DNA of 63,763 nucleotides, filler included, from Hausera hauseri (taxonomy: Eukaryota): the NCBI GenBank assembly GCA_046269625.1. It is 10 parts of 10 records of this genome, joined end to end, with 100 filler letters (N's around TTAATTAATTAA, not from the genome) between each part and the next. Parts side by side here need not be neighbours in the genome. Positions count along the whole stretch, not along the records: positions 38,675 to 51,128 come from JBJURY010033336.1; 9 more parts are not named here. One strand, written 5' to 3'. Under the pieces are notes generated by a model, which saw only the letters and a list, made by a program, of their open reading frames with translations, was not told the DNA's origin and made no database searches. Made by a program: the position numbers and the translations under genes. Positions 9,638-61,774 of this stretch are shown one piece after another. Numbering within the stretch: position 1 is the first letter of the stretch; each line of letters begins with the position of its first letter.

Positions 9638-9752
9638 CCTGTTCGTTTAAGTNNNNNNNNNNNNNNNNNNNNNNNNNNNNNNNNNNNNNNNNNNNNTTAA
9701 TTAATTAANNNNNNNNNNNNNNNNNNNNNNNNNNNNNNNNNNNNNNNNNNNN

Positions 9753-15011: not shown

Positions 15012-15071
15012 TCCGCTGACCTTTTCAACAACTTTCATACATCCCAGGACACTTACTGTCTCCTGTTATAC

Positions 15072-23091: not shown

Positions 23092-23624
23092 AGTAGGGAG
23101 AAAATGTGCTTTTGGTCCCACCTCGGTGGGGGGGGGTAATCAATACATCGATGTTGCATAGGTGCCGACCGATAGTGCACCCGAAGCACTATCGATCCAA
23201 AAAGTGCCTAGCAACGGTGCCCTTAGTCACAGTTGCTAATGGCACTTTTGCCTTTTCACTAATCGATCGCTGCACAGTACACTATTGATCAAATCGATGG
23301 TACAAAGTGTTAATCGATAGTGCACATAAGTGCACACCGATTGCTGCAAGTACAAGTGTGCAGAACATGTGCAAGTGTGCAAAAATCAATAATATTGGAT
23401 TTCCGATATTTCAAAAAGTGCTGATTAGCACTTGTGATCGGGTGCAATTGGTAGTGCACGTGATGTTTTGTGTGAATGTGCAGTTAGAATTTAAATCGGT
23501 TGATTGGTTTTCGAATAATTCGCAAGTGGGGTAAAACCGCCACAGGACTTTCCGCTATAAATTTTAAATCAATGATATGAATATGGCACATATACTGGCG
23601 TGTGCAGTACTTGATGTAGTATCG
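23092..23624 (+). repeat. Probable Polinton terminus/TIR starting AGTAGGGAGAAAATG
   Basis: Inverse homologue of 12300-12740; the AG-starting terminus fits Polintons. Confidence 0.7.
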
Positions 23625-23724
23625 NNNNNNNNNNNNNNNNNNNNNNNNNNNNNNNNNNNNNNNNNNNNTTAATTAATTAANNNNNNNNNNNNNNNNNNNN
23701 NNNNNNNNNNNNNNNNNNNNNNNN

Positions 23725-23838
23725 TTTATGGATCGATAGTGTTCCGGGTGCACTATCGATTGGCACATGTGCAATATCGATTTATCGATCCAACCCCCCC
23801 CGGGGGGTCTGTGCCCGAATCCCCATTTTCTCCCTACT
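23725..23838 (-). repeat. Third copy of the same Polinton terminus, abutting a gypsy pol gene
   Basis: Ends CATTTTCTCCCTACT and is homologous to 12635-12740. Confidence 0.7.
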
Positions 23839-38674: not shown

Positions 38675-38745
38675 TAATTATTTGCGGTTGTAGATCAGTG
38701 ATGTGTGGAAATTATAGGGGGCGGCGTTTCTTTTGAACATACCTG
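38675..38745. mobile_element. Terminus of a Tc1/mariner-type TIR element, followed by TA at 38746-38747
   Basis: GAAATTATAGGGGGCGGCGTTTCTTTTGAACATACCTG is the exact reverse complement of 51043-51080. Confidence 0.85.
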
Positions 38746-38747
38746 TA

Positions 38748-39591
38748 TATAACAGATATTAAAAATGATAAAAAGAAATCAATAAGATGTGAAATAACCC
38801 ACAAGCAACAGTCGTCATGTTGCAATGTTACGAGAGGAAAGATGTACCAGATAAACTACAAATTAATCCGCAAAGAACAAGGAATTGTTTCCAATATACT
38901 AAAGCAGAAAGGTCCAATGATGTACGTAAAATACAAAAATCTTACTAAGTATAAAGATAAACATTCGAAAATCTCGACGCTATCAGTGCACTCCCAATTA
39001 ATTAATAAAACTAAAGAGATGACCATTTTGATCCTACCGTATGCGTCACATTCCCGACCGAAACGGTCCATCTGGGAAAACGTAACAATTACACCGACAA
39101 CCACTGCATTAATCATAGCGGTCAAACCTGACCTAGATTTCTTTAAAATAAAATTCACCTGCAAAGTCCAGCAAATGATAGTCGCAACAGGCGTAATTAC
39201 GCCCGATGATTTAATTGTACCTTGCGCAGCCCTGACTCCTGATACAAAATACACCATTACACTTAATCTGTACAACGAAAATAACAAGGTAGTGTCCACA
39301 AAAATCTTGACAGCCTATACAAAAGATACCAAGGAATCAGATTTAATAAAACCACCCAAAAGCAAAATCACACCCAAAATAGTAACTACAAAGAAACCAA
39401 CAAGAGCAATATATACGTATTCACGTATGGAATTAATATTAATAGGTACGATAACCCCTGTCGCACTAACTCTACTAATAATAATCGCGATAAAAGTAAT
39501 TAAGATGAAACGACAACGTCAAAAACCCGGTTGGGTACGCATAGACATGCGTCGCCTAACAAAGCCGCTGGACTCGGATAATCCGAGCTAA
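38748..39591 (+). CDS. C-terminal part of the retroelement polyprotein: Cys-containing beta module, furin site RPKR, FN3-like domain, stalk, TM helix and tail
   Basis: Open from 38749 in the frame of ORF 38842; ALTPDTKYTITL; TM LILIGTITPVALTLLIIIAI followed by KMKRQR; joins 51042 in frame. Confidence 0.8.
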
Positions 39592-39720
39592 CAATTACAT
39601 CAATGGATTGCATGTTACGCAATCCAGTATATTAAGATAACTAAATATGATTTAGTTACCTTAAGAACTCATAAAATTCAAAATCGAACGATTGCCTACG
39701 TATTATACTCGACAACCGTT

Positions 39721-41022
39721 ATGATTACGTTAAGTATACCTTGTAACAGTACATTGACTATTATTTTTACAGTTATGAAATCTTCTCAATCTATCCAGTC
39801 CTCCACAGCGATGCAGATCCAAACATTGCAAAGGTCAAAACACTGGTACGACAATGCCAGAAACCATTTGATAAACGCAGGGCCAACAAATCAGTATCAT
39901 GTTGTGATGAATGACAATACCTATTGTCTAAATTATCCACACCTCCAGCAAATCCCCAATAATCTCAAGGGGTACAGTATGGCTAATCGGTCACTGGCCT
40001 TAATACAAATGACCAAAGCCACTTCATTCCTCATAAAAGACCTGATCACCTTACCCAATAAATATCACAGCCTCAATGTCTACGACATACTGGGAAAATT
40101 CCAGATCAAAACAAAGAACTCAACCACGAAAATGGCAGGTGATCTTATCAATCTAGACCCTAACTATGGAATATCTATTGATTCCAAGTTCATGGATAAA
40201 AACACGATAAAAGTACGTTCCCTTACCAACCGTATAATGATAGGAGTTGAGGTAATAAAATCAGAAAAATTCTGGCCCACGGAACCCCAGGGAAGATGCT
40301 TCAACCTGCCAGAACCAGACTACCACCAATATAAAAAGAAATCGTATCGAAGGACAACCGACATCAATGAAAGCGACATGGCTATCGTTGCAGTAAATTT
40401 GGCCTATGACCAGTTTAACCAACTCCAGCCGATAGAATGCAGCATTATGAATCTAACTGGCGAAACCCTCTTCTATTCAATTATCACGCCTAGACAGAGG
40501 ATTAATAACTATGACACTCACGTAACCGGATTGACCGAGTCGCAAACGAACAATCAGATGGATGTGAATGACTTCTACCAGAAGGTCAGCACAGTCTTAA
40601 CGGATAAGTTGGTAATCGGGGCCAACGTATTAGAAACATTAACAAATTATCTCAAATGCCCACTACGAAGAATTGCAGGAGTTTGCGATATTTTATATCA
40701 AGAGGACGTACTGCAAAAATACCATATGGAGGTTATCAGTCATAAGGAGCTAGCCAAACGCTTCTATGAGACACGAACCATGCCACTTCGAAGTACAGTA
40801 TTGGTTCAGTGTTATCAAGCCATTTACCGTTCGTTAAAATGGATGGACGATGTGATCGACACAAGCACGAGCCCCGATAAGGTGTTAAAAACACCCCCGT
40901 CATCTAGAAAAAGGAAATTCCAGATGGAAGAAACCATATTTATGAATGGAGAAGTCTTCACAATCGACGCAGTGCGATATAAATCGCAATCCGGAAACTA
41001 CATCTATCTTCCTCCTTCTTAA
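39721..41022 (+). CDS. Accessory ORF with a C-terminal ISG20/REX4-like DEDDh exonuclease fold, catalytic residues apparently degenerate
   Basis: IVAVNL...CSIMNLTGETLFYSIITPRQRINNYDTHVTGLT...VSTVLTDKLVIGAN...DI; intact 433 codons. Confidence 0.7.
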   Translation: MITLSIPCNSTLTIIFTVMKSSQSIQSSTAMQIQTLQRSKHWYDNARNHLINAGPTNQYHVVMNDNTYCLNYPHLQQIPNNLKGYSMANRSLALIQMTKATSFLIKDLITLPNKYHSLNVYDILGKFQIKTKNSTTKMAGDLINLDPNYGISIDSKFMDKNTIKVRSLTNRIMIGVEVIKSEKFWPTEPQGRCFNLPEPDYHQYKKKSYRRTTDINESDMAIVAVNLAYDQFNQLQPIECSIMNLTGETLFYSIITPRQRINNYDTHVTGLTESQTNNQMDVNDFYQKVSTVLTDKLVIGANVLETLTNYLKCPLRRIAGVCDILYQEDVLQKYHMEVISHKELAKRFYETRTMPLRSTVLVQCYQAIYRSLKWMDDVIDTSTSPDKVLKTPPSSRKRKFQMEETIFMNGEVFTIDAVRYKSQSGNYIYLPPS

Positions 41023-41059: not shown

Positions 41060-41923
41060 AACTTATTCAGTCGACATTTTACAATTTTGTGTCTCATATT
41101 TTTTAATTCACATTTACATGCTGCGATCGACATATTTATTATTGACCGACATTTCTATTATTGATCTGACCTGCAAAAATATGTGCTATGACTTCGAGAA
41201 TAATTGGGTGACATATGTTATTTTTAGCGATATTTCCCATTTGACATTTGACAGTACTTAACCGACATTTACAGTCTGCAATCAATTTTTAATTCTCCTA
41301 TATCTCCCATTTGACATTTTGTAATCTGTAATGTGATTTTTTAACCAGTGGTGTGCTATATACGATCCTGCATGACATTTTTAGTTTGTTATAGACCATT
41401 TTTTTAATGATTAATGCAATTCTGCATGTTTATAAATCAGGTATAAATACCTGTGGTTTAACGTACGATTTAGAACAACTTTTGACAACAAGTTTTTGAA
41501 TCAAGTTTGGGTATTATTGTTACTTTAAGTATGTGTTTACTTTTCTTAATATCGTAACGGTTATCAATATTTTGCTCTTTTGTTTGTAGATAAATTACTA
41601 AGTAAACCAAGTAATTAAGTAATCGAATCTAAATAACTTGGAGGACCCGACGTGCTGTCAGACCGCCGCCCAAATAATCAAACTAAACTACAGTCAAATA
41701 AAACCGTAGTAACTAACGAGTAACACACGCATACCTTGACCCCGACACACTACCCATAAGTTAAGATAGTAAGGTCCTTGGACTCTCTCTCTACTCACAT
41801 CGCATCGAATAATCTCCCTATTTGTTCACCCGTTGGTTTAATAATTGTCGTTTAAAAACAAAACCAATCGTCTAAAGAAAAGATAAATACGCTCTCCCCA
41901 TTTAAATCAACGGAGACTGAACA
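41060..41923 (+). repeat. LTR of the env-bearing gypsy element (5' boundary approximate)
   Basis: Non-coding, ends ...GAACA two bases before the PBS; TATA-like TATAAATA at about 41442. Confidence 0.65.
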
Positions 41924-41943: not shown

Positions 41944-42094
41944 GTAAACCATTCGCATATAAAAAAAATTTAAATAATAAAGTAATAAAATTACCAAGAT
42001 AGCTACCAGATCTGGTGCTAGATATAAAGAAGAAAACGAAATTGCATACGGTCTTGAATATTTAAATAATCTTAGTGAAGAAGAAAACGAAATA

Positions 42095-45000
42095 ATGACA
42101 GGAAATAATGCACCCATAGAGCAGGTGATTCAGTCAAAGGCTGATTTTACCCTGCCAATGAAGAAATTTTCAGGAAAAGAAGACGTGCAAGACTTTATTA
42201 TGGAGTATGAAGTATACTCGAAAAGTTTCGGATGGACTGATCAGCAGCGTGTAGAGAGGCTACCTCTCCACCTAAAAGGGACTGCTCTAGCCATTTATTT
42301 TCAAATGCCTGATGCCGATAAGAACGACTGGAAAGTCGTAAAAGAAAAATTGCCTCAAAAGTTTTTGGTTGACCCTACCGGAAAAGGGAGAATTGAAGAA
42401 TTCATAAGAAGAAGGCAACGTAAAGACGAAACGGTTCAGGAATTTGTATGCGCTTTAGAGAAATTGGCTGCACGAGCATACCCAGATGCAACGACAAGAA
42501 GTAACGCCTTATTGGCCCAATTCCAATATGGATTAGAAGAAAGATTGAGGACAATAATCTCGCAGGCTGACCCATCCACGTTTTTAGAAGCAATAAGAAA
42601 AGCACGTAAAGCTGAGAGAGATGCTGAGTTTTATAGATGGAATAGATTCAGAAATTATAACAATAATAGTTACGATAAACGTAAAAATAACAGCACTCAA
42701 AGGTATGAACGATACGAAAGGAATAGAAGTCCATCCCAAACCTCAGCCACTGAAGCTGAGTCAGATGGAGAAAAGAAAGTAAGATTCAAACTGAGAAATG
42801 AAGGAGAGAAAACATCCTATAAAAAGAAATACCCCAAAAAGGATGGAAGATCATGGCCAAGTATAGATTCAGAAGGAAGATTAAAGTGTTTCAATTGCAA
42901 CAAATACGGCCATATTGCCAAAGCGTGTAGGTCACGAAAAAGAGAACCTATGAAGAGCAACATGAGATATAATAACAATAATAAACCCAAGAAGGACTAT
43001 ACATCAGTTACATCAGACGAATCATCCGATGGAGAATACGAAACAGAAGAAAGTGAATCGGAACGAAAGAAAAAAGAAAGTACTAATTATGTCAATGATG
43101 TATTGTCTCATCGAATGAAGACGCAATTAGCGATGGAATTAAAAGATTATAAGACTCAACAAAAACGGTTGAAAGAAAATAGTATCTGCACAATAGAAGA
43201 TAAGCCTGAAGGAACAAAAACTCGACGAAGTAGGAAGAAGAGTAATAAAAAGATAATCGAAGTGGAATCAAGAGAGACTTCAGTGGAGAAGAGTGATGTA
43301 GAAAAGAAGACAAAGAGAGGACGGAAGAAGAGTTTAATTGGAGAATCAACCTCGGAAGAAGGAGAAGAAGAAAGTAAACCGGTAAAAATATTTGATGAAA
43401 CAGTGATGGAGCAGGTAATCCAAAGAAAAGAAGTTGACTTAGATGCTGACGATGAAATTATCGAAGCTATAGTTGCTATTAACCCCGAAAACGTCGAAAT
43501 AGATGGAGCAATAAAAGCCTTACTGAAATTAATAAACAGTAATGTATCAGCAAATAAATTAAACGAAATATTATTTCAATTATTGTTACTTGCGCATGAC
43601 ACCAGCCCAGTTCGAGACATAGCACGAACGATACTAGCTAAAGCAGCAGAAGCAGAGATAGGAAAAAGTGAATTTATCAGAATAACTTTAAAGGAAGGAA
43701 ATCAAGACCTGAGAGTAATCCGGATGAAGGAAAATGACGACATAGAGACCCTACGCGAGAAAATCGTAGAATTAGAACCGGATTATAGAGAAAAACTGTA
43801 CGGATTAAGTTTCTATGGAAGAACGCTATATAGTTATGACAACTTGTTACGGATAGGCATTAGAAACGAAAATTATAATCCCATTACCATTACTCTAGTG
43901 GAGATTCACCCGGACGCCAGAGCTGAGGTAGTAGCAGATAATATAATTAGAGAACTGGAGCCACCAGAAGAACATTTGCTAGGTGACACTCAAGATGTTA
44001 CAGTTCAGACAGAGGCAAGAAGAAGAGGAAGACCGAAAGGTACCAAGATAAGTGACATCAAGAATAAAAGAGATAGAAATGAAGAGATAGTACGCCGGTT
44101 GTTGTTATCAGGAATAGATATGACGCCAGAGTCAGTAGACATCGACCCGCTAATAAGAACGTTACTAGCAAGATTGCACACCTCATTTGCATCATTCGAT
44201 ATGCAAGTGACAATTCCAGATGAATTATTTCAGTCATTACGAAATTCATTATTGAGAATTAGTAGGCAATTTTACGAAAATATTACGGAAGAAAGAATTA
44301 ATGAATTACACGAACAAGATATTGTAGAAAAGATGTTGGCCTCAGGAGTTACTCGAGAAAAGGTATTAACCGCGGTGTCATACATAATCTATAAAATAAT
44401 TGCCACTAATCACCAAACAGAAAATCTTGAAGAGATTGATCGTAACATCAAGACCATAGTTAAGGTTTTGCGAGATACGCTACAAAACTGGGTTCAATGC
44501 AGAGGAGGTTGGATACCGAGTTTAATGGCTAACACAGCCATAACGGAAATGCCAGACAGACCTTCTGGCTCACCAGCGACCACTCCACTTAACCAAAATG
44601 CTATTAGACAAGGTATAACGAACGTGTCGTTTGTGGAAATCCTTCAACTTCTCTTAATCATGTCCATTTGCGCACCTAATGCTATGGGTATAGTAGCATA
44701 CGACTGCTCAAAGCCGAAAGAAGGACAAAAGTATTCATTTGTTGACCTTGAAAAATGTCCAGAAGCGGACCCAGAACAATTAGTCACTACTACTGGTCAT
44801 CGATATTGGGTTTATCAGGAATCCGAATTTATAAAAGTCAAAATACGAGAATGTTATTTGAAACGATCTTTTTTCCTTTTCAATTGCGCATATTACTCTG
44901 GTAATTCGGCAATAATAGAACCAACTACACCATTTGAGCCTATAATAATATCTCGTGCCGAATGCCAAGACGCTTTTAAAATTGGAACAATAACGGTGCA

Positions 45001-48000
45001 AAATGCACATATACCCGCAGTAAGAAATAGAATAAAATATACTCGAATTTTCCGAGCAGGAAAAATCGACAAAACTAGAGAAGGAACTTGCAAAGGAGTA
45101 GACTATGACGTAGGCGGAACAATCGCACCTAGAACGGTAGCCATTGAAGATTACCAAGTACAATTGAAAGAATATGAAGCGTTGTTTGACTCGCAAACTA
45201 AATTAATGACTACGATGGCTGAGTGTGAATACGATAACGGTGAATGTGACACAGGAGAATCGAAGATGGCTTGGGAAGTATCTACAAAAAAATGCCATTT
45301 AACCTTGCTAAAAAACGGAATATTTAACAAAACGGTAGGGAAATCAACCGATAAAGAGACAACTACGTTTAAGGAAGGAGTAAAGGAAGCAAAAATGACT
45401 GAAGTCGCTACTATAGTGTTCTCAGCAAACCCAGAGGAAATGATGAGATTCAAAATCACAGGCACGCTGAACAAATGTGACGAAGAAATATTTAAAACTA
45501 ATTACAAAGGGATATACTTGTCCTTGAAACAAGTACACGGAGCAAAAGCGAAACTAGACAAAACGGATATAAAGTTAACCCAATATTTCGATAATAAAAT
45601 AGATTTCCTAATCAACTATGTAAGAATGGAAATTAGAAGTCTATACAGGGAAATAATGATGAATGAATGTAAATTAAATTACGAAATTATGCGAAATAAG
45701 ATGGCTCTGGTAATGACTAACCCAGACATGGTAGCCCCGGTAATGCCATTCGGTGATGGAATAATTGGTAGAATAATGGGTGAAATACTAGTAACTATCG
45801 AATGTAAGAAAGTAGATGTCAAATTAAGACCCACGAATATCTGTACTTCAGAATTACCAGTAGAATACCAGAATGAACCGCGTTATGTAATGCCAGTAAC
45901 AAGAATCCTATTGGAAGCCAACGTGAAGCCGACAATTCTTTATAATTGCACTTTTAACATGTCACCAATGTTCAAAATCAATGATAAAAGTTGGATACGA
46001 ATGCCTAATAGAGAAACGATGCCAGCTCCAGAAATGCTTAGCCTAGTAAATCTGCAAAGGAATCATAAATTCGAACCTTTAACGAGTATCCCACAAGGAG
46101 GGATATATACAGAACAAAACTTAGAGGACTATCGGAGAATGATAATGTTCCCACAACAAAGACAACGAGTAATAACAGAATTGACAAAAAGAGTAATGTG
46201 GGACGGAGAAGGATCACCACAATGGGAAAATCTGATGGGAAAAGACTATTTAAAGAAAGTAACGAGAAATATCATGGAGAAGATGTGGGGAAGATTTCTA
46301 TATTTCGGACAAGCAGCTTCAGGATTTTTAGCAATATATTTTATTATCAGTGCCCTACGAACCATATTTACTGCACTGGGAAAAGCATACGGAATTCACG
46401 CTGCAGTAGGATGTTCGTGGAAAATTTTAATAGCTGTAATACCGGCGGTAGCCAGTTGTTTCCTGGCTAACCATGATGCTAAATGGAAAAAGAAGTTACT
46501 TAAAGAAAAGAATAAAAATGTTGAAGATACCTCACCTTACAGCATAATAAATGACAAAAATGATGATGACGATGACGGTAAGGCGGATAACAAGGAATCC
46601 ATTAGTAATAAATACCTTACCAGAATGAAAAGATTTTCGTTAAGACCAAGAAAAAAGAAGTACAAGAAGAAATTACTAACGGACCTGCCACAACTAAATT
46701 CAGCGGACGAATATAATGGACAAATCTGTACATCAACTTCAGCCCCGTATTATGTACAATCTTTGAGATATCAAGACAATAACGGCTTAGAAAGAAGAGA
46801 AACGTATCCCATGTATCAAGTGTTGCAAATGAAAAGAAGTTACGACGAAAATTTACCATCTCAGCCTACGTGCAAAACGAATGATAAGAATGCACCAAAA
46901 ACACCTACTAGACCCGAAGTAATGATAGATGTGAACGGATACCCAATGCTTGCGTTAATAGATACAGGATCGACCACAACGATAATGGGAAAAAGTCAGT
47001 TACCACCAAAACTCTTGAGAAAACTAAGGAAACCAACAGAGACACTAGTTAACGTAGGAGCATTTGGCACTGAGGAAGAAATAAAGACTGTCCTAGATGC
47101 CAAAATTAAAATATGTAATCAGATAATTGACCATACCATCAGAGTAGCGGAGAACTTAACGAACGAAATCCTTATTGGATGTGACATTTTAAGTCAATTA
47201 GAAGAAGTCTATATTGATCTAAAAACAAGTCAACTTAGGACGTTTGGCAAGAGAGAATGTGAAGGGTCAGTCACCTTAACAAGAGAAATGGTAATACCAA
47301 GTAGAAGCGAGATAATAACGACCGGAAGAATCCAAGGAAGGAGGGAATTTGAAAATGTGCATTTCGAACCATCATATCAGACAATGGAAAGATATGATAT
47401 TCTAATCGCTCCGCATATCGATAAAATACGAGATGGGAAGATTCACCTAAGAATCTGCAATACTGGGAACAGGAAAATACGATTAAGAAGAAATACTAAA
47501 ATGGGATATATAACGGCAATTGAGGATATATTGACCGGATCCGTCAAAGAAAGTGTTAACTCTATAATTTCAGATGTGGATAAGATTGAGAAAATGATAA
47601 ATAAGAAATTGAGTGATGGAAGACAGAAAGTGGAAACGAAGAAAACCCCAAATCATATTAACTGGGAAGAGAAGTTACAAGAATGTAAAATGTTAAACGA
47701 AGAAGAAAGAACAGCACTAAAACAGCTCCTAGAAAGGAATAATAAGCGGTTTGCTCAAAGTGACTACGACTTGGGATCTATGAACGTAATACGACACTCT
47801 ATTAAATTAAAAGATGGCCAAGATAAACCAATAAAGAAGCGACCTTATAGATTAGCATATGATAAGAAAGAGCAAGCCCGCCAGATTATAAAAGAAATGA
47901 GAGAAAATAAAATAATTCGACCTAGTTGTTCTCCTTGGACAGCCCCGGTAGTAATGGTTAAAAAGAAAGACGGAGCTATGAGATTCTGCATAGACTATCG

Positions 48001-51000
48001 AGCCCTTAACGAAATAACAGAAACGGACACCTATCCGCTGCCCAGAATCGACGAGATCCTAGATAAGTTGCACGGATCAGCTATATTTACAACCATAGAC
48101 CTGCAGAAAGGATACTGGCAGGTAGAGATCAAAGAGGAAGATAAACAAAAAACTGCCTTCTCGATAGGCGAAGGATTATGGGAATTTAATAGAATGCCCT
48201 TTGGATTAAAGAACGGCCCACCAACGTTCCAAAGAGGAACAGAGTTGTTATTATTAGACGCCCCTCATGCAATGGTCTATATCGATGATATAATAATCGC
48301 ATCACCTAGTTTTAGCCAACACTTAAAGGATTTACAAGATCTGTTTGATAGATGTGAAATAATGGGTCTTAAAATTAATCCGAAGAAATGCTCATTCGCA
48401 CAAGAAGAAGTCGACTTTCTCGGACATCGAGTAGATCGATATGGCGTAAAACCATTAGAAAAGTTACTCGGAAAAATTAAAGATTTTCCAAAACCTACCA
48501 CCGTAAAGGAACTACGTCGATTCCTGGGATTAGCCAATTATTATCGCAGATTTATAAAAGATTTCAGTAAAATAGCCAAACCATTATACGAATTACTGAG
48601 AGAGGATCTAGAAAAAGTAATATGGACAGCCGACTGCCAGAATTCATTCGAAACTTTGAAAGAAAAACTGCTAAGCGCTCCAATCTTAATATATCCCGAT
48701 ATGAAGAAATCATTTATATTGGCAACAGATGCAAGTGACTACGGAGTCGGCGCAGTATTATCACAAAAGGGCGAAGATGGAAAAGAACACCCAGTAGCTT
48801 ACGCATCAAGGAAGCTGAATAAGCATCAGAAGAAATATGTGGTTATCGAAAGAGAACTATTAGCCGTAATATTTGCACTAGAAGTATTCTCACCTTATAT
48901 CAGTGAAAATAAACCTGTATTGATATACACAGACCATCGACCATTACAATGGTTAAAACAGCATGAAAACCCAAATAGTAGATTATTACGTTGGGCTCTT
49001 AAACTTCAACCATATACCCTGAACTTCCAGTATAAACCTGGAACGCGTAATGCCAACGCGGATTATCTATCAAGATTACCAGAAAACCAGGAAACAAAGA
49101 AAGCCGTAGTAGCAGCTATATGGAGCATGGACGGATCCATAGAGAAGATAAGAGAGAACCAAAGCGAAGATGCCGAAATAAAGGCCATTAGAGGTTATTT
49201 GATGAATAAAATCGTGCCATCAGATAAAGAGTTAGCACGACACCTAGCTAGATTTAGTGAAGCTTACGAAGAAAAAGAAGGATTCTTGTATTATATTCAC
49301 CAGAACGGGCCCGCATTAGTAATTCCAAAGAAGAATCGAGCGGTATTATTAACCCAATACCATAATGGATTATCGGGAGGCCACCAATCGGTAAGAAAAA
49401 CAATAAATAAACTGAAAAGAAAATATTTTTGGTCTACTATGGTAAAGGACGTACAAGAATGGTGCGATAGTTGTAAACTATGCTTCACCCGTAAAAATAC
49501 GGGCTCAAAATTTAAAGCACCCCTCAAAGTATGGGACAATCCACCAGCACCATTTGAATTCACCGCAATGGATATAACAGGACCTTTACCATTAACACGG
49601 AATGGAAATAAATATATCCTCGTGTTCATAGATTATTTTACTCGATGGGTAGTGGCGATACCTATGCATGATATGAAGGCAGACACAATTGCTGAGAAGT
49701 TCGTAGAAAACATTGTTTTCAACTACGGAGCCCCCAGAATATTACTAACGGATCAAGCCTCCAATCTAACAGGGAATGTCATGCAAGCGATATATGAGAT
49801 CATGCAGATACTGAAATTGAGATCAACGCCCGGACACCCAGAAAATAATGGCATGATCGAAAGATATATCGGAGATCTGAAAAGCAAATTACAGACAGTC
49901 GTAAGCGTCAGACAAGATGACTGGGACGAATATATCAACGCATGTGTTTTCGTAAATCGAACATCAGTACATGAAGCTACCAAAGAAACACCATTTTACT
50001 TAATGTATCTGAGGGATGCCAGATTACCAATCGATTTAGACTTCAACGTAAAACCAACTTCGCATTTGATGGAAGTAGAAGAATATAAACAGCTAATGCA
50101 GGAACGCTTACAATTGGCGTACAAAATAATAAAAGGAAATCAATCGGATTATAAAGACAAATATAAGAAGTACTATGACAAGAAAACAAAGAAGCCGAAA
50201 ATTAAAGTGGGTGATAAAATAATGCTACACGTACCATTGAGCAAGAAAGGAAAGACGTCCAAATTAGATAGACCCTATAAAGGTCCATATGAGGTAGAAA
50301 AAGTGGACTTACCTAACATCTGCATAAAGAAAAATAATGCCACGTTCAAAGTGCACGTGAATAGATGTAAACCTGCAGCTAAAGAAAGCCATCTCAGAGA
50401 AGATGAACAGGAAATAGTGAGAACAATTAGCGAGAAACCAATCGGTAAACAAACCACATATACAAGGGTTAGCATAAAAAACTATTTCATATTTTTAATT
50501 TTTATGCTATTGCCTGGTGCTATAACACAAACAATAGAACAGGAAGCGATGAAATCCATGATATGTCATCTAATATCAATATCAGATGATTCATTACTGA
50601 AAAGTATCAAACATCATATAATATATTCCAAAAAGGGTCAAAAATGTATAAAATTTTACGCTGAAAAACCCTTACCTACCAATTATACCGTAGGAATTCA
50701 AGTAATTCATGAGGAGGATCATAAAGAAAAACTAACTCGACAGAACTACGATTGTGAGCTACATTATGAAACAAATGAAACAGAATGTTTAATAGAAGAA
50801 GCCGGTTTATATAACCTATATTATACGCTCATTAAAAAGCGAGGCAATCTCTATCGGACGCAAGATGCTAAAAAGATGGGTCTAATAAAAATTCTTAACA
50901 AACATGAAATGAATGTCACGCAATTAGATGTAAAAATTATCGAACAAATAACAGCAAAACTGATTGCTTTTAAAAACGGAAGAAGTTGCGTTGAAATAAC

Positions 51001-51076
51001 GACAAGGATAAAATTGGAATATAATCGAAGAATAAACATATACAGGTATGTTCAAAAGAAACGCCGCCCCCTATAA
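42095..51076 (+). CDS. Single-ORF Ty3/gypsy polyprotein: Gag, Ubl, AT-hook, Bcl-2-like, class III-like glycoprotein, PR, RT, RNase H, IN, second ectodomain
   Basis: CFNCNKYGHIAKAC at 42887, RRGRPK at about 44020, NWVQCRGGW at about 44490, signal peptide plus IVAYDC at 44690, TM about 46290-46470, DTGS at 46961, YIDD at 48278, TDASD/TDHRPL, HHCC, DDE core, GPY. The last 11 codons come from the inserted TIR. Confidence 0.95.
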   Translation: MTGNNAPIEQVIQSKADFTLPMKKFSGKEDVQDFIMEYEVYSKSFGWTDQQRVERLPLHLKGTALAIYFQMPDADKNDWKVVKEKLPQKFLVDPTGKGRIEEFIRRRQRKDETVQEFVCALEKLAARAYPDATTRSNALLAQFQYGLEERLRTIISQADPSTFLEAIRKARKAERDAEFYRWNRFRNYNNNSYDKRKNNSTQRYERYERNRSPSQTSATEAESDGEKKVRFKLRNEGEKTSYKKKYPKKDGRSWPSIDSEGRLKCFNCNKYGHIAKACRSRKREPMKSNMRYNNNNKPKKDYTSVTSDESSDGEYETEESESERKKKESTNYVNDVLSHRMKTQLAMELKDYKTQQKRLKENSICTIEDKPEGTKTRRSRKKSNKKIIEVESRETSVEKSDVEKKTKRGRKKSLIGESTSEEGEEESKPVKIFDETVMEQVIQRKEVDLDADDEIIEAIVAINPENVEIDGAIKALLKLINSNVSANKLNEILFQLLLLAHDTSPVRDIARTILAKAAEAEIGKSEFIRITLKEGNQDLRVIRMKENDDIETLREKIVELEPDYREKLYGLSFYGRTLYSYDNLLRIGIRNENYNPITITLVEIHPDARAEVVADNIIRELEPPEEHLLGDTQDVTVQTEARRRGRPKGTKISDIKNKRDRNEEIVRRLLLSGIDMTPESVDIDPLIRTLLARLHTSFASFDMQVTIPDELFQSLRNSLLRISRQFYENITEERINELHEQDIVEKMLASGVTREKVLTAVSYIIYKIIATNHQTENLEEIDRNIKTIVKVLRDTLQNWVQCRGGWIPSLMANTAITEMPDRPSGSPATTPLNQNAIRQGITNVSFVEILQLLLIMSICAPNAMGIVAYDCSKPKEGQKYSFVDLEKCPEADPEQLVTTTGHRYWVYQESEFIKVKIRECYLKRSFFLFNCAYYSGNSAIIEPTTPFEPIIISRAECQDAFKIGTITVQNAHIPAVRNRIKYTRIFRAGKIDKTREGTCKGVDYDVGGTIAPRTVAIEDYQVQLKEYEALFDSQTKLMTTMAECEYDNGECDTGESKMAWEVSTKKCHLTLLKNGIFNKTVGKSTDKETTTFKEGVKEAKMTEVATIVFSANPEEMMRFKITGTLNKCDEEIFKTNYKGIYLSLKQVHGAKAKLDKTDIKLTQYFDNKIDFLINYVRMEIRSLYREIMMNECKLNYEIMRNKMALVMTNPDMVAPVMPFGDGIIGRIMGEILVTIECKKVDVKLRPTNICTSELPVEYQNEPRYVMPVTRILLEANVKPTILYNCTFNMSPMFKINDKSWIRMPNRETMPAPEMLSLVNLQRNHKFEPLTSIPQGGIYTEQNLEDYRRMIMFPQQRQRVITELTKRVMWDGEGSPQWENLMGKDYLKKVTRNIMEKMWGRFLYFGQAASGFLAIYFIISALRTIFTALGKAYGIHAAVGCSWKILIAVIPAVASCFLANHDAKWKKKLLKEKNKNVEDTSPYSIINDKNDDDDDGKADNKESISNKYLTRMKRFSLRPRKKKYKKKLLTDLPQLNSADEYNGQICTSTSAPYYVQSLRYQDNNGLERRETYPMYQVLQMKRSYDENLPSQPTCKTNDKNAPKTPTRPEVMIDVNGYPMLALIDTGSTTTIMGKSQLPPKLLRKLRKPTETLVNVGAFGTEEEIKTVLDAKIKICNQIIDHTIRVAENLTNEILIGCDILSQLEEVYIDLKTSQLRTFGKRECEGSVTLTREMVIPSRSEIITTGRIQGRREFENVHFEPSYQTMERYDILIAPHIDKIRDGKIHLRICNTGNRKIRLRRNTKMGYITAIEDILTGSVKESVNSIISDVDKIEKMINKKLSDGRQKVETKKTPNHINWEEKLQECKMLNEEERTALKQLLERNNKRFAQSDYDLGSMNVIRHSIKLKDGQDKPIKKRPYRLAYDKKEQARQIIKEMRENKIIRPSCSPWTAPVVMVKKKDGAMRFCIDYRALNEITETDTYPLPRIDEILDKLHGSAIFTTIDLQKGYWQVEIKEEDKQKTAFSIGEGLWEFNRMPFGLKNGPPTFQRGTELLLLDAPHAMVYIDDIIIASPSFSQHLKDLQDLFDRCEIMGLKINPKKCSFAQEEVDFLGHRVDRYGVKPLEKLLGKIKDFPKPTTVKELRRFLGLANYYRRFIKDFSKIAKPLYELLREDLEKVIWTADCQNSFETLKEKLLSAPILIYPDMKKSFILATDASDYGVGAVLSQKGEDGKEHPVAYASRKLNKHQKKYVVIERELLAVIFALEVFSPYISENKPVLIYTDHRPLQWLKQHENPNSRLLRWALKLQPYTLNFQYKPGTRNANADYLSRLPENQETKKAVVAAIWSMDGSIEKIRENQSEDAEIKAIRGYLMNKIVPSDKELARHLARFSEAYEEKEGFLYYIHQNGPALVIPKKNRAVLLTQYHNGLSGGHQSVRKTINKLKRKYFWSTMVKDVQEWCDSCKLCFTRKNTGSKFKAPLKVWDNPPAPFEFTAMDITGPLPLTRNGNKYILVFIDYFTRWVVAIPMHDMKADTIAEKFVENIVFNYGAPRILLTDQASNLTGNVMQAIYEIMQILKLRSTPGHPENNGMIERYIGDLKSKLQTVVSVRQDDWDEYINACVFVNRTSVHEATKETPFYLMYLRDARLPIDLDFNVKPTSHLMEVEEYKQLMQERLQLAYKIIKGNQSDYKDKYKKYYDKKTKKPKIKVGDKIMLHVPLSKKGKTSKLDRPYKGPYEVEKVDLPNICIKKNNATFKVHVNRCKPAAKESHLREDEQEIVRTISEKPIGKQTTYTRVSIKNYFIFLIFMLLPGAITQTIEQEAMKSMICHLISISDDSLLKSIKHHIIYSKKGQKCIKFYAEKPLPTNYTVGIQVIHEEDHKEKLTRQNYDCELHYETNETECLIEEAGLYNLYYTLIKKRGNLYRTQDAKKMGLIKILNKHEMNVTQLDVKIIEQITAKLIAFKNGRSCVEITTRIKLEYNRRINIYRYVQKKRRPL

Positions 51077-51128: not shown

Positions 51129-51228
51129 NNNNNNNNNNNNNNNNNNNNNNNNNNNNNNNNNNNNNNNNNNNNTTAATTAATTAANNNNNNNNNNNNNNNN
51201 NNNNNNNNNNNNNNNNNNNNNNNNNNNN

Positions 51229-53205
51229 TCACCTTTCTGTTGCACTCTATTCTGAAATGCCATAAGTTTCTGTTGTGGCGTTACTGTAGGCAATAACTTA
51301 CGATTCAATGCTCCAACCAGGGAGGACCAAGATTTTTTTTCATCATTAATAAGCTCACTATAAGCATCGACAGCTACATTCTTAAGATATAGTGATAAGC
51401 GTTTTATTGTTACTTCAGGAGTAAGACTAGTACCCTCTGCGTGCAGCTTATAAATCCTTAAAAAGTCATTGAGCCCGTCCGGGTCACCGTCGTATGCCGG
51501 AAGATTCAAAGAGTCAAATGAAAAATGTCGAGCTTTTGTCCTACGCCTGGATTCTCCGTTGCCATATTTATCCTATTCTTACGAGGTTTATCCTTAAGTT
51601 GAGGAAGTTTATGCTTACCGTTTGATTCTAAATTGATTTTAGTGTCAGAATTTGTTCTGTATATTACTCTGCGTGTCTCACGTACAGGAGACTTATTTCT
51701 ACCGTTTATTTGGTTCTCAATGTTCGTCTTAATTTAGCCCTTTATTTTAGTCTCTGATAACTTATATCCCACAATTTATTTTTCTTTCTATTAATCGGTG
51801 TATTGGCGCTGATCGCCGATATGTCTTTATTTAGCTGTGAATAGTACTAGCTAGGCACAGACTGTCCTGCTAGGGTCGCCAAATGTTATATATACGGGTG
51901 GCCCTTAACTCACACCCCTTATATATAACGTATTTTACTCTTGAAATTAAATTTTCTTATGCAAAATCGGTCTAACGTTATCGCTAAACGAATGTGCCTA
52001 GTATGTCGATTTTACGTGAATGCAAAATGTGGTAAATGCGACACCCCTGCGTAGTTTTAATAATTTCCAGCTACTTATATAATTTACTGTGAATTTTACA
52101 CTTAGTGTACATCAAATCAGCCTAAAGGGCCGATGAGAAACTATAGTCGGATTTTATACAATATAAATAAAATATACCAATATATTGATTCCTACAAGGG
52201 AATCACACGTTTTAGAATAATGTCAACGTTTTCAATACTGCTGATATTGAGTTACTGAGTTGTCTTCTTTAAACACTGGTCGAATCTTCAATCAAGTACC
52301 TTTTCGCTAATCAACGCTATAGTCGATGAAAACTGATCAAATAACTGTTTAGAGAAATTGTCAGGACTAATCGACGCTAAAGTTGACGAAATCTGTTCGA
52401 AATACTGTCATAAACGCTGGCTTATATACTAGGGCTAATCAGTGCCAGTTGCTTTTTATTTGCATTTCTCTCATTAATTTGCTATTTTCAACGTTTATTT
52501 AACAATTCATTAGCAGATAATTGCCATATGCCATTTCTAATTATTACGTTACTAATACATACTATTGATAATTCAAATTTAACGTTAACAACAATATGTT
52601 CAATTCACTAATATGTACAATTTAACAGCTGTATTATTTAGTCAATTCACAACAAAGCCAACCAGACTACTGTCAAGGTACAAACTTAATATATTTATTT
52701 TCTTTTTGACCGTATTTTACTTGTTAGGAAGGTGAATCTGTAAAATGTTTGTCCGAACTAATTGGTTTTTAAAATCCGAAATAAATCGTTATTTAAATAG
52801 GGAATGTTTTCAGAGGACAGAGTTGCAATCTTGTCAAGATAATCCTTAATTATTAAAATATGTATGTTAAACATTTTAAGGTTTTATTCTTCCCGATGTT
52901 TACTTTGAACCCGATAAAATAAAACCAACACTACGCAATATGGTCTCTAATTAATTCAGGCAAAGATTTTGACACGTATTCTCAAGTTATTTATCAATCA
53001 CGGCCAATCAATTATGGTAGCTCACAGAGCGACTCACAATTGTTTAGAACATACAAATTATTTACCAATCAGCCAAATTTGGGACCTTCAAATGATTTCG
53101 ATTACCACAAAAAGCAAAAATAAAGAACTAGATTAGTATGACAAATAAAATATGCCCTAAATAAGTTGTTGGCTAAATGCTCGCTCGTCCGAGACACTTG
53201 TAACA
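51229..53205 (-). mobile_element. 5' end of another gypsy element: LTR 51884-53205, PBS 51864-51881, gag from about 51565
   Basis: On the minus strand the LTR runs TGTTACA...TATAACA, followed by TGGCGACCCTAGCAGGAC. Gag reads LPAYDGDP...FLRIY...LSLYLKNVA...RVQQKG. Confidence 0.8.
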
Positions 53206-56260: not shown

Positions 56261-59200
56261 TGTAGGTTTTATTTGGTTAAAACAAATCCAAGAAATGAAG
56301 AAATAAATCCACAAGAAACAAGTTGTATTTAAACTTTAAAATTCTAAATTGATAAATCTATACAGAAAAATCAATTTTTAACCATGAAGCACATATATAT
56401 GTATACAAATGTTCATATATAAGAAAATAATCAAAATGTTAGAATAAAAGCATTACAATCTTAAAATCATTGATACAGGAGAAATCACAGATCCCGTGAT
56501 TGCATTGTAAATTACACATTCAGAAAGCAGCAATGAATTAAAAAAAACGATTTAAAATTTAAAGTCAGACAATGCTAGCAATACCTTTGAAGGTCTGTTC
56601 CTTGGTAAATATAGTTTTATTTCAATATTCTCATTGGCATCATCATCTGCCAAAACGATGATAGAAGAACAGCGACAAAACCCACGACTTTATTCTTATT
56701 TGAGAGTTCCCTGCTTTTCTGAATCACTGGATAAATAACATCTTTTCCTTTAAGTGAAATTTCAAAATCGACGACTGCTATATACATTCGAGCAGAATTT
56801 GGCGAGGATACAAGTTGTTTATCTAAATTTTTCTGTCGACTTGATTGCTTTTGATTGCTTTTACAAATCGTTCGAGCTAAATGCCACTGTCACACCATTT
56901 TCAGAAATTGCAGCTTTTGCGTCGCATAATCACATTGTGGGAAAATTCTCTCACCGATTCGACAGCCTCAAACAGTGCAGCCGCATCCTAGCCACTACAT
57001 CACCTTCTCCCCCCGCAGTGGCAAGACAAAAACTTTGAAGAGAAGAAAATGAATGGAAATTACAGTAGAAACAAGAAGAGCTTATACCTATTCGGTTTTG
57101 GTACGTGTTAGACGTTGGACTCCATCTGTGAACTTCTCCCTACTGTAAGTACTAAACGTCACATGACGTGATCTGTTAGTTATAACTGGTACTTGTGGAG
57201 TCGTTGGAGAGAGAGATACTGTGGATTTTGTGGTGCTGGAGGATGTTCCATGAGGCGGTGAAAGTGGAGAAGAAACTGAAAACGGAAAAAGATCACGCGA
57301 AGCAGACGAGATTGCAGAGGGCAGAGAATTGTGCGATGAAGGTGAAATGAATAGTGGATGTGCAGGCGATGACGGATAAGCAAATGGTGAAGGAGCACTG
57401 GAAGATGAAGGAAGTGAAGAAAACTGATTGTGACGCTATAGTGATGGCTGCGAAGGATTAAAATTATCAAGGACATTAGATGGTTGCTCGAGGGTAGAGA
57501 AGTTAGAGTTGGGATTTGAAACAATGCTGTTATTCTGGTCATCATCGATGAAGAAGGCTGGCTTAAGATTAGAAATTTGTACATTATGGGGTTGGTCCTT
57601 GCGTAAAATAGTGGCAGTGTGCGAAGAAAGATTAAGTAATTTGTAAGGTCCAACGTATTGAGGCCAAAAACCAGAATGTGACGGATCCTTCAACCATACA
57701 AACTTGGCTGAGTATATATCCTCTGGGATATAAGATTTGTCTTTGTTTATAAGACGGCAGAACGCATTCGAGTATACATCAGCAAAGTGGGACTGTGCTG
57801 CACGAATAACTTCATCTGATGGACTTTCGTCCAGATTGGAGAGCTCAAATAGTGCACGAACTGGTGTCCCAAAGAGAGCCTCAGCTGGAGCACAGCCTGT
57901 AGTGGTGGATGGCATGAGATGGCATGAGGTCCAGTTATGATTGTTGTTAGCCAGGATTTTTAAGGAAATCTTCATGGTATGATGAAATCTCTCGAGAAGA
58001 CCATTTGCTTGGGGATTGTACGGCGTCGTATGGAGATGGGCTATCTCCAAGTGCTTTACAAGAGATTTGAAAGATTAGCTTCAAATTGCGGACCCTGGTC
58101 CGTTATGATGTGACGTGGTGAACCAAAACGGTTGACCCATATTTTGATTAATGCATCTGCTACTGAGTCGGTGTTAGTTAATCGAGGCGGAACGGCTTCA
58201 GGCCAGCGGGAAGCACGATCCATCATGGATAAGATGTATTGATAAGCGTTGTTGGATGGCAAAGGACCGACAAGATCCAAATGCACAGTGTCAAAATGGG
58301 ACGTACAATGGAAGTGGTAAAGTGGTGGTTTTAGGTGTTTGTGGACCTTGTATTGCTGGCATGCTACACATCCCTTGACCCAGATCTGTACATCTGTACG
58401 CATAGTTGGCCATACAAAGTGGCGTAGCAGTAGTTGAAATGTGGCTTTTGGACCCGGATGATGAAGAGGGTGAAAGTGATTGAAATCTGTCTTTTGTAGC
58501 GATGTAGCAAGAATGATTTTCTTGTTGGTCGAGTTGGAAGTGTCGTAAGCGATGCCATCGATGATTTCAACATATTTAAAAGCTTGGGGAATGTCAGATC
58601 ATGGCTGGTTGCTTCTCAGGACCTCAGAGGAGAAAAGTGGCTGAACTGTAATTGGGTTAACCCACCGCGAAAGCAAATCCGCTACTAAATTTTCGGTGCC
58701 TGAAATATATTTCATGAAGAAACTAAACATCGACAGGTATGATATCTGTCGTTTTTGTCTGGGTGATGGCTGTTTCAAAGTCATTATATGAAGTAAAGGC
58801 TTGTGGTCGGTTTGGATGGTAAATTGACGTGAAAGAAGCAAGTGCTTGAAATGCTTTACCGCTAAAACCACAGCCAAAAGTTCACGATCGAATGTGGAGT
58901 ATCGGCTTTCCGGTTGCGTGAGCTTTCGGGAATATAACTCTAATGGTTCATTGACGCCATTGTATATTTGCTGTAATATCGCACCAGTTGCTGTGGTAGA
59001 GGCATCGGTAGTTAGTATTAATTCGGCGTTTGGTTTTGGAAAAGCCAAGATTTCCACAGTTTTCAGACCTTCACGAAGGCGATCAAATTGATTTACTAGA
59101 TCGGGAGTCCAATGGATTAATTGCCTTTTCTTCCCGGATGAGAGGTGTGCGAACGGTGCCGTTAGTTCGGAGCAGTGTGGCACGTATTTGTCTACGAAAT

Positions 59201-59720
59201 GCAATGTACCTGGAAAACTACGCATATCGGTAGTTGTAGTTGGCAACGTTACGTTTTTTATTTGTTGTAAGCGATCAGGCTGGGGCGAATGCCCTTCAGG
59301 AGTGATTATATGGCCTAAGAAGTTTACACTTTTCTGGAAGAAATTGCATTTGTCGAAATTAATTTGCAGGTTACTTTGATGCAATCTTTGGAAAACGATT
59401 TTAAGATGCTTATGATGTTGTTTTATTGAGCTGGAAGCGACTAATATGTCATCTATGTATGGGTGAGCAAAATCAAGTTCAGAAAGTACGGCATCAATGT
59501 GGCGCTGAAAGGTCTGAGATGCACTACGTAGGCCGAAAGGCATGAAGATATATTCATAAAGGCCAAACGGTGTGATGACAGCAGTTTTTGGAATGTCATC
59601 AGGCGCAACAGGGATTTGATGGTAGGTCTTGTGAAGATCAATAGTAGAATAAGTATTGGTGTTGCTGAGGCTATGAAGAATATCCTTAATGAGTGGTAGT
59701 GGATAGGCATCTGTAATAGT
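56261..59720 (-). mobile_element. CsRn1-like gypsy 3' half (RT, RNase H, IN; PPT at about 57001-57015; 3' LTR 56261-56999), inserted in PolB
   Basis: YIDDI, TDAS, TDHKPL, HLDLVGPLP, TDQGPQFE, NGLLERFH. On the minus strand GGGGGGAGAAGG precedes an LTR running TGTAG...CTACA. Confidence 0.9.
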
Positions 59721-59820
59721 NNNNNNNNNNNNNNNNNNNNNNNNNNNNNNNNNNNNNNNNNNNNTTAATTAATTAANNNNNNNNNNNNNNNNNNNNNNNN
59801 NNNNNNNNNNNNNNNNNNNN

Positions 59821-61770
59821 ATGTGGCGTTGGAATGTTTGACTTGCATTCCGTAAGCCGAAAGGCATGCGTAGGTACTCGAACAAACCAAAAGGCGTTAT
59901 TACAGCCGTTTTTGGAATGTCTTCGGTAGCTATTGGGATCTGGTGGCATGCCCTTTTCACATTGATTGCGTTGAATATTGCGGCACCATGTAGGCAATGC
60001 AATATGTCTGTTACCAACGGTATTGGGTATGAATCATGGATGGTGACGTTATTCAACATTCTGTAGTCACCACAAGGCCCGTATGATTCGTCCTTTTTAG
60101 AACCATGTGCAATGGTGATGCCCACGGTGATGTGGAGCGGCGTATGATGCCTGTTTCTTCGAGGTATCGGAATTCGGCTTCCGCAGCTGCTGTCTTTACA
60201 GGGTCAATTTCCCTCCGGGGTTGCCGAATTGGTCGGTCACATGATGTGACAAGAAAGTGTGATGTTTTCATCTCTTTCTGTGTTGATTGTGCTGAGCGTT
60301 TCAACAGGTTAGGTTATTGCGCTTCCAGCAATGGAGCAATGTCACTGGAATTTGTAATTTTGATATTCGTGACAGCGTTTATAGTTAGTGTGAATGCGGG
60401 TGGAGGTAGTGGATTGCTCCCGCTGGTGAGTGTTCATTTCGGCAATCAACTGTGAGATCGTAGTGATCTAGGAAGTCAGAAACAAGGATTGGTTGATTGA
60501 CATCGGCCAACATGAATGACCAAGCGTATGGTCGGCCTTGTAGGTGAAATTGTAGGTACAGTGTACCTGTTGTTAATATGCGCGTGCCATAGTCAGCTTT
60601 GAGTGATGCATGCAAGACCAGCGTATGTCTAGCGTATGCATTAGGTATCAGCTATAGAGCTGCACCAGTGTCGATTAAAAAATCGAGTTGTTTCGAGATG
60701 TCAGAGTGTAGTGGCTCCGTCTCGAGGGTAAAAATAGCATCGACAATGGGGTCGCGATTTGCATACGGCAGTTGTGGTGATTGGGTTTCCAGTCGACGTG
60801 CCGTTAGTCGTCTGGGCCCATTTAGTTTTTTGATGGCTTGTGAAATTTGCAGCCGGGTAGACAGATTTTTGCGTCTCTGACCAAAATAGTTGTGATAAAT
60901 GCAAGTGTCTTGCATTTTTACGTTTGCTGATGGCTTGTCGAATTGACAACCATGGTAACATTTGTAGGCGGATTTGTCAAATCGTGTGTGGAAATAACAA
61001 ATTTTGGAAAATTTGCCTTTCTTTCTCTTAGGGGATGGACGCCGAGATGACTGTTTGTCTCTGGCTGGCAGATTCTTGTGTGTTACAAGTGTCTGCAGTG
61101 CGGCGATAATGGTGTACAGCAGACTTTTTGGTTAACGTTACGGAGTGGATGTTTTTCGTCGGAGCGGATGCTACGGTACTTTCGTGCACTAATGTATTTT
61201 GTCGGCTTTTGATGATATATCGTCCAACGTGGTATCGAGCGGTAACAACATAAGTGCTGCTTGGATTTGGTTATGCAAAGTACTCAGGAAGTAGCGCCGT
61301 AGTATGTGCTGGTTGGAGTGGAAGTCCAACTCAGCATTGCTTAAGTGTGAGCATAATTTTTGCAACAAGTCAGAAGGTTTCATATTCCTTGTCTGTCGCT
61401 TGATGAAGACCAGGTTGAACTGGTCCTGTTGGGACGGCAGATATGCATTGCATATGGCTGTTTTGATTTTGTCGAACGGTTTTTCATCTGACAGTAGTGT
61501 GTCCTGATCCCTTATGACTGCGAGCGTTGTTGGCTGCAGGTATTGAGTTATTTTTAATGCCTTGTTTAGTTATCCGGTGATTCTGTATTGAGTAGCCCAT
61601 GTTTCAAACACATGGAACCACTTCTCTGGAGTTCCGTCCGAACCTATGAAGAAGGTGAGACATGGTAATTTGGGTGGTTTGGCCCGTGTTGCTAAAGCAG
61701 TTTCTGCTTTTTTGTCAGCGTAAGGTTATTTTATCCAACGGCACAAACCGACATTGTTCGGCTAGTTATG
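59821..61770 (-). mobile_element. CsRn1-like gypsy gag, PR and start of RT, decayed
   Basis: KPSDLL, two CHCC boxes, FLIDTGA, SPWASPLHMV, TPFGLFEY. Confidence 0.85.
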
Positions 61771-61774
61771 CCTT

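Follow-up and report, generated by a model that had tools for sequence, protein, structure and literature searches.

A divergent, predicted Bcl-2-fold domain at the Gag end of a compact Gag-Env-Pol retrotransposon from Hausera hauseri

In a 63,763-nucleotide stretch of DNA from Hausera hauseri (GCA_046269625.1; ten parts of ten records joined by filler letters, and hereafter the window), the contig JBJURY010033336.1 carries a Ty3/gypsy-type retrotransposon that encodes Gag, Env and Pol in a single open reading frame (ORF). At the end of Gag, in frame and ahead of Env, lies a 125-residue domain (44144..44518, + strand) predicted to adopt a Bcl-2 fold. A fusion of this kind had been proposed from a sequence-only reading of the window, and the Pfam match, the predicted structure and the structural alignments agree with it. 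We give about an even chance to this divergent domain damping the host's cell-death or defence signals while tethered to the endoplasmic reticulum (ER), facing the cytosol and not using a classical BH3 groove. Its likeliest role, held with the same middling confidence, would be to bind host death or defence regulators via a non-canonical surface. Throughout, positions count along the window and residues (aa) of the ORF are numbered from stop to stop.

Evidence for a Bcl-2-like domain

Four BH-type motifs lie in one frame between 44075 and 44512, inside the ORF at 41981-51076 and in the order first described: RNEEIVRRLL at 44075-44104 (aa 699-708), the BH3-position helix LRNSLLRISRQF at 44237-44272, the BH1-like motif VEKMLASGVTREKVLTAVSY at 44324-44383 and the BH2 motif LQNWVQCRGGW at 44480-44512. 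The Pfam Bcl-2 profile (PF00452) matches aa 747-844 over its positions 6-100 of 100, with E-values (E) of 8.1e-4 for the whole ORF, 2.1e-5 for a 161-aa piece and 8.1e-6 for a 112-aa piece. When the domain was used for a sequence search of the PDB, nine rows were returned up to E 10, five of which are BOK or BAX (four BAX), the best being BOK at a weak E of 0.068.

Relatives were sought exhaustively among 1.84 billion representatives at E <= 0.001. Two proteins were recovered, P0003 (37% identity) and P0004 (24%), both of them Gag proteins with the same series of helical, ubiquitin-like (Ubl) and Bcl-2-like domains. Identity to P0003 is 59% in the capsid, 48% in Env, 45.5% in the Bcl-2 core, 36% in the Ubl domain, 7-38% in the linkers, 28% in the spacer and 24% in the signal segment; therefore the Bcl-2 domain is about as conserved as Env. 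In pairwise alignment to P0004 the domain scores 165, against a mean of 48 and a maximum of 82 for 300 shuffles. Judged from sequence and model together, the Bcl-2-fold domain is real and constrained. Word-index homologue searches returned P0004 alone, such limits being no evidence of rarity, and none of three viral-contig scans, with the domain, with alignment A2 and with Env, yielded relatives.

The BH motifs are unevenly retained across the three sequences. The BH2 motif WIxxxGGW, as named in PMC8814693, reads WVQCRGGW in the window and WVKCRGGW and YLEERGGW in the relatives, so that the GGW tail, whose conservation in related elements the sequence-only reading had made decisive, is kept in both. 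This BH2-type pattern, which was picked after the motif had been seen, has a single occurrence in the six frames of the window; of 5,000 shuffled versions of the ORF, 4 contain it. The NWGR signature of BH1 is absent: TREK stands in its place, as had been noticed at the outset, with SRNK and a DTK-type sequence in the relatives, so that the Trp and Gly are replaced in all three (the Gly by Glu, Asn or Thr). The BH3 consensus includes a conserved Gly-Asp, which is likewise missing from all three sequences, the position reading LLRISRQF, TAKVSEQF and LRVLIPVI. The Gly and Arg of NWGR have been tied to BH3 binding, and their loss to weak or no binding, in PMC9027176 and PMC8814693. Because the domain has neither NWGR nor the Gly-Asp of BH3 and such residues are linked to BH3 binding, we file it as Bcl-2-fold rather than as a canonical multi-motif member; most of the residues that form the canonical BH3 groove are replaced.

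Structural modelling points to the same family. AlphaFold2 was given three element-derived sequences without host Bcl-2 rows and produced a model with a mean predicted local distance difference test score (pLDDT) of 56, the Bcl-2 part ranging from 47 to 74. A single-sequence AlphaFold2 run on the 161-aa piece was uninformative (mean pLDDT 40) and was left out of the fold searches. Foldseek against the PDB returned a list filled by ubiquitin-like domains and Bcl-2/Bcl-xL, the latter at prob 1.0, TMt 0.53-0.58 and E of about 5e-3 to 1e-2. Among 48,161 chains compared by VIA-align, canarypox CNP058 came out on top (Z 9.5, root-mean-square deviation (rmsd) 3.1, 113 residues aligned), and all six of the top-50 rows that lie over model residues 242-369 are Bcl-2 proteins. 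The structural neighbours closest to the model are CNP058, Bfl-1, A179L, GIV66 and Mcl-1. Structure prediction followed by a fold search, the check put forward with the sequence-only reading, thus came out on the side of Bcl-2. In the predicted model, helices 1-8 follow in order around a central hydrophobic helix 5 (aa 795-809, hydropathy 1.67), with 105-118 residues aligned at rmsd 2.8-3.4 and Z 8.4-9.5.

The model also shifts the assignment of BH4. In most rows the Bcl-2 structural alignments start at model residue 239-246; therefore helix 1, or BH4, would be DPLIRTLLARLHTS (aa 722-735, 44144-44185), and the pairwise alignment to P0004 agrees. RNEEIVRRLL (44075..44104, + strand), originally taken for BH4, lies about 25 residues before helix 1, outside the Bcl-2 structural alignments and at a pLDDT under 50, and is read as an extra helix ahead of the Bcl-2 core. 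The predicted domain accordingly runs from helix 1 through the BH3-position helix, TREK at the BH1 position and the central helix to the WVQCRGGW of BH2. The case for a Bcl-2 fold rests on profile, structure and motif all pointing the same way.

Tethering, function and the alternatives

Downstream of BH2 lies a putative internal signal peptide of Env (44615..44689, + strand). Its hydrophobic segment (aa 879-897, hydropathy 1.89) begins 35 residues past the BH2 Trp, near the 40 or so residues at which the sequence-only reading had placed a possible tail anchor, and is present in P0003 too. Signal-peptidase cleavage follows the -3,-1 rule, and small residues precede IVAYDC at the start of the Env ectodomain, where a cut before about 44690 would fall. 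We infer that aa 879-897 acts as the internal signal peptide of Env and as the membrane anchor of a Gag-Ubl-Bcl-2 precursor. Because this segment would be a signal peptide, the polyprotein would be made by ER-bound ribosomes; signal peptidase would cut near aa 903/904, leaving the segment as the C-terminal anchor of Gag-helical-Ubl-Bcl-2. Such a topology would match that of a tail anchor, with the ER in place of the mitochondrion and the domain facing the cytosol. The element's protease may then release the capsid from the helical-Ubl-Bcl-2 cargo, and the Bcl-2-fold and Ubl domains would bind host partners and keep the producer cell alive or quiet while particles assemble. The Bcl-2 fold can act outside apoptosis, as in poxviral A52/B14 (PMC2494871), and a Bcl-2/BH3/cytochrome c pathway exists in flatworms (PMC7022251). 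Presumably an ancestor of the flatworm Gag-Env-Pol lineage acquired the domain from a Bcl-2 gene, either of a host or of a virus.

The contig that encodes P0004 offers a variant of this arrangement. This contig, L001, was the one confirmed among 177 pattern matches. A TGA at 3058-3060, 20 residues after BH2, ends a 997-aa Gag-Ubl-Bcl-2 protein, after which an Env leader that lacks a Met resumes in that frame. The TGA is either a site of readthrough or a nonsense change. No RNA structure behind the stop stood above shuffles (z 0.36 and -0.10); therefore programmed readthrough is without structural support there, and a nonsense change is possible. The anchor may thus be conditional in L001. We regard as rather improbable the fuller proposal that the signal peptide of Env also serves to tail-anchor a working Bcl-2-fold effector, so that a single polyprotein gives rise to an ER-tethered inhibitor of death or defence, and that in some members such as L001 readthrough toggles between a soluble Gag-Ubl-Bcl-2 and an anchored form fused to Env-Pol. 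If it is true that the signal peptide anchors such an effector, the retrotransposon would bear an apoptosis modulator that acts via a surface other than NWGR.

Several observations weigh against an ER-tethered dampener that works without a classical groove. Model quality is modest (mean pLDDT 56), no Foldseek match in the PDB reached E <= 0.001, and the best VIA-align Z of 9.5 is below the level of about 13 that the program rates as safe for helical bundles, a lower Z being what a generic helical bundle may give. The Pfam check proposed with the sequence-only reading gave the match over profile positions 6-100 described above, yet the scores of 20.3, 25.5 and 26.8 bits for the three pieces all fall below the curated cut-off of 31.4. 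Relatives number two, and the Pfam Bcl-2 match is weaker in them (P0003, E 0.055; P0004, none at E <= 1). The putative anchor, 35 residues from BH2, is poorly conserved, and the L001 stop parts the domain from the signal peptide, so that anchoring would not be obligatory there unless the stop is read through. A basic Lys stands at the NWGR Arg position in all three sequences, as in the TWGK of BOK, which makes groove binding possible. Conservation of the domain is equally compatible with a structural role in particle assembly.

The sub-threshold Pfam scores, the modest model confidence and the weak or missing Pfam matches in the relatives would suit a captured fragment in decay, or some unrelated helical bundle whose likeness to Bcl-2 is fortuitous. 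We consider either very improbable, given that the sequence profile, the structure search and the BH2 motif each lead independently to Bcl-2, that the core is 45.5% identical to P0003 against 7-38% for the linkers, and that the P0004 score is about twice the shuffle maximum. If the domain is a genuine member of the fold, it could be a classical viral Bcl-2 protein whose groove sequesters host BH3-only proteins or Bak/Bax/Bok and so blocks mitochondrial apoptosis. The nearest structural neighbours are BH3-binding prosurvival proteins, the Lys at the Arg position is retained, and viral members may lack BH motifs, with ORFV125, which has SPGR, binding BH3 weakly (PMC9027176 and PMC7022251). However, the list of neighbours is dominated by already solved proteins, the NWGR Trp and Gly are replaced in all three sequences, and a co-translational signal peptide would lead to the ER and not to the mitochondrial outer membrane. 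According to PMC7022251, moreover, non-apoptotic roles bypass the groove. We hold the classical reading to be possible but unlikely.

A structural use of the fold is also unlikely, slightly more so. Under this explanation the domain would be a matrix-like, membrane-proximal module that couples the capsid to the Env-bearing membrane during budding and takes no part in signalling. It would explain why the domain adjoins the putative membrane anchor, why it is produced in the same amount as the capsid, and why its conservation is close to that of Env while the residues for canonical binding have changed. On the other side, a Ubl domain accompanies the Bcl-2-like domain in all three sequences, joined in the planarian Burro elements discussed below by BIR, ankyrin and MATH domains, and such company suggests host regulation. 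An ER-tethered dampener of death or defence signalling is thus the reading we prefer, at the even chance given at the outset.

The element and its genomic context

The single ORF (41981..51076, + strand) spans 3,031 codons from stop to stop, with its first Met at 42095, and encodes in order a capsid, a zinc knuckle, a helical domain, a Ubl domain, the Bcl-2-like domain, the internal signal peptide, a class III fusion Env, and protease, reverse transcriptase, RNase H and integrase (PR-RT-RH-IN). The Ty3-type capsid domain (42155..42613, +; Pfam Ty3_capsid, aa 59-211, E 2.4e-5) is the segment most like P0003, and a CCHC zinc knuckle follows at 42884..42931 (+; Pfam zf-CCHC, aa 302-317, above cut-off). 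Env (44690..46540, +) is a class III fusion glycoprotein of the gB/mononegaviral type, matched by Pfam PF24664 Monjiviricetes_fusion over aa 886-1520 at E 1.2e-88, with C-terminal hydrophobic segments at aa 1445-1463 and aa 1478-1496 by hydropathy. From Pfam and motif reading, Pol (46907..49840, +) contains an aspartic protease (DTGS at 46961), a reverse transcriptase (YIDD at 48278), RNase H and integrase. The PR-RT-RH-IN order together with a Ty3 capsid is that of Ty3/gypsy elements, and the class III Env, which has motifs in common with Platyhelminthes_C1a, sits between gag and pol.

Two further domains between the zinc knuckle and the Bcl-2-like domain had escaped the sequence-only reading, which was right about the Bcl-2-like domain itself. 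The small helical domain (about 43433..43660, +; pLDDT 63-80) resembles TFIIS N-terminal/IBD or HEAT-type bundles. Its VIA-align matches include the Elongin-A TND (Z 9.1 and rmsd 2.8 over 80 aligned residues) and the HRP2 IBD (Z 8.3); HEAT-type bundles score alike, and these Z values may reflect nothing beyond a common helical arrangement. That it might be a second, partial Bcl-2 domain was ruled out by an hhalign probability of 2-5%. The integral Ubl domain (about 43673..43906, +) was found by profile and structure searches. A single-sequence search of the PDB with the Ubl piece gave chance rows alone; the assignment emerged with profile A2, which matches single-domain Ubl proteins in the PDB at E 2e-4 to 1e-3. 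The Ubl model gives Foldseek prob 1.0 with TMt up to 0.77 and a VIA-align Z of about 9 (rmsd 2.4-2.9). The C-terminal Gly-Gly is absent from all three sequences.

The contig (38675-51128, about 12.4 kb) is flanked by two N gaps and seems to present a 3' part, one candidate long terminal repeat (LTR) and a 5' part, in that order. The candidate LTR (41656..41923, +; TG...CA) was found by eye and is followed at 41926 by a TGG sequence resembling a primer-binding site. A Logan contig match ends at 41923, the candidate LTR end, with 32 unlike letters beyond, and no second copy of the LTR lies in the window. The contig thus appears circularly permuted, which fits two LTRs collapsed and the 3' part put upstream by assembly. 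A perfect inverted repeat of 43 nt occurs at both contig ends (51038..51080, mate 38708-38750) and probably marks the termini of a DNA transposon, likely of the Tc1/mariner type, whose insertion breaks this copy at both contig ends. A Logan contig of run X1, which may be the source sample, joins 51040 to 38746 without the inverted repeat; therefore an uninterrupted allele exists. In total, 12,254 contig records of this run map to the window at 85% likeness and variants of the Bcl-2-like domain occur in 22-23 contigs, figures that fit a multi-copy family and are not a copy number. No RNA holder of the element is listed.

Two ORFs that lie upstream in the assembly (38737..41022, +) probably make up the 3' part of this element. 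The first (38737-39591, +) encodes a membrane protein with a strong transmembrane segment (hydropathy 2.65), and a second signal-like segment follows the integrase at aa 2830-2848 (within 50468-51076, +). No Pfam assignment was obtained for the 50468-51076 and 38737-39591 segments; together the signal-like segment and the transmembrane ORF suggest a second surface protein at the Pol end. The second ORF (39592-41022, +) encodes a candidate exonuclease fold weakly similar to ISG20/ISG20L2 (E 0.04-0.05) and may be inactive, as its first acidic motif looks replaced by eye.

Elsewhere in the window, outside the element's contig, a stand-alone dUTPase ORF lies at 36246-36812 on the minus strand (Pfam E 6.5e-23). 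ORF pieces at 9697-11313 (-) resemble, by eye, regions of the protein-primed polymerase of Polinton/Maverick elements. A fragment at 15012-16013 (+) looks by eye like the end of an adenylation domain with a carrier domain, similar to a non-ribosomal peptide synthetase or an aminoadipate reductase, and adjoins a decayed gypsy element. Further decayed Ty3/gypsy fragments occur on both strands at 16000-26000, 51177-51572 and 57400-62600, and a degenerate simple repeat of TTCG type, extremely AT-skewed, fills about 4 kb at 28100-32000.

Comparison with known elements and viral Bcl-2 proteins

The sequence-only reading had treated an apoptosis modulator borne by a retrotransposon as unreported. The layout and the apoptosis proposal were in fact already given for the planarian Burro elements in PMC6431247 (Arkhipova and Yushenova 2019), which credits Grohme et al. 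2018 with the BCL2 motif. That paper describes a BCL2-like motif preceded by a Ubi2/SUMO-like domain, with env in frame between BCL2 and the protease. It suggests that Burro interferes with both apoptosis and ubiquitination, a proposal it leaves awaiting experiment. Burro elements also bear BIR and MATH domains there, a theme of apoptosis-control cargo. Compared by description, Burro1-4/GYPSM1 of Schmidtea mediterranea and a Burro-like element of Dugesia tigrina share with the present element one polyprotein comprising Gag, a ubiquitin/SUMO-like domain, a BCL2-like domain, an in-frame mononegaviral-type env and PR-RT-RH-IN. They differ in size, Burro encoding 4,873-5,140 aa in up to 25 kb against 3,031 codons in about 12 kb here, and the present element has one zinc knuckle. 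No Pfam match to BIR, ankyrin or MATH was found in the ORF up to E 10, and the roughly 240 aa between zinc knuckle and Ubl domain leave little room for them. Between PR and RT, where Burro has a dUTPase-like domain, no Pfam match to such a domain was obtained, and a beta-rich stretch near aa 1770-1855 resembles one by eye alone. Set apart by description, the element is a compact Gag-Env-Pol relative with the Burro core layout and is not Burro by size or by BIR/ankyrin/MATH content; Ubl and Bcl-2 are the cargo kept where those domains are absent. In PMC8532177, BURRO1 serves as an expression marker, and there is no 'bcl' passage. In the literature outside subscription papers we found no functional test of the Ubl-BCL2-env retrotransposon architecture.

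The element also resembles the 'ancient errantiviruses' of PMC13524379, where GAG-ENV-POL elements of the HSV/gB type are described from Platyhelminthes, Bryozoa and Nematoda. Smed_errantivirus_1-6 share the Gag-Env-Pol order and the class III Env. Of six short motifs taken from the window's Env, two match the sequence supplement of that paper (Chary and Hayashi) in five rows, all of them Platyhelminthes_C1a Smed errantiviruses, and because all of these are Platyhelminthes the element likely belongs to a flatworm lineage, going by these Env motifs. By contrast with the present element, Bcl-2 or ubiquitin-like cargo goes unmentioned for the ancient errantiviruses in the main text of PMC13524379, in which 'bcl' occurs within 'subclade' alone and 'ubiquitin' and 'apopto' occur zero times.

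Among cellular proteins, BOK and BAX are the top Bcl-2-family matches of the domain in the PDB sequence search, and GVT..K at BH1 and W...GGW at BH2 recall BOK. The matches are at E 0.068 or worse, however, and the element's domain is without the BH3 Gly-Asp and the BH1 Trp-Gly; BOK is a candidate origin only. Among viral proteins, CNP058, African swine fever virus A179L and grouper iridovirus GIV66 align with the bundle predicted here at Z 8.7-9.5 and an rmsd of about 3.1, and weak BFVD rows link the domain to the gammaherpesviral v-Bcl-2 of bovine herpesvirus 4 (BoHV-4) and to ORF64 of a callitrichine herpesvirus. Identity between the viral Bcl-2-fold proteins and the element's domain is 8-17%. 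Moreover, viral Bcl-2-fold proteins, including the non-apoptotic poxviral A52/B14, are stand-alone genes of large DNA viruses, whereas here the fold is predicted within a polyprotein whose sole candidate anchor is the Env signal peptide. The structural support, the reassignment of helix 1, the missing groove residues and the L001 stop refine, and do not overturn, the published annotation. At 125 residues, the domain provides an easy test object for asking if retrotransposons, in the manner of large DNA viruses, suppress the death of host cells.

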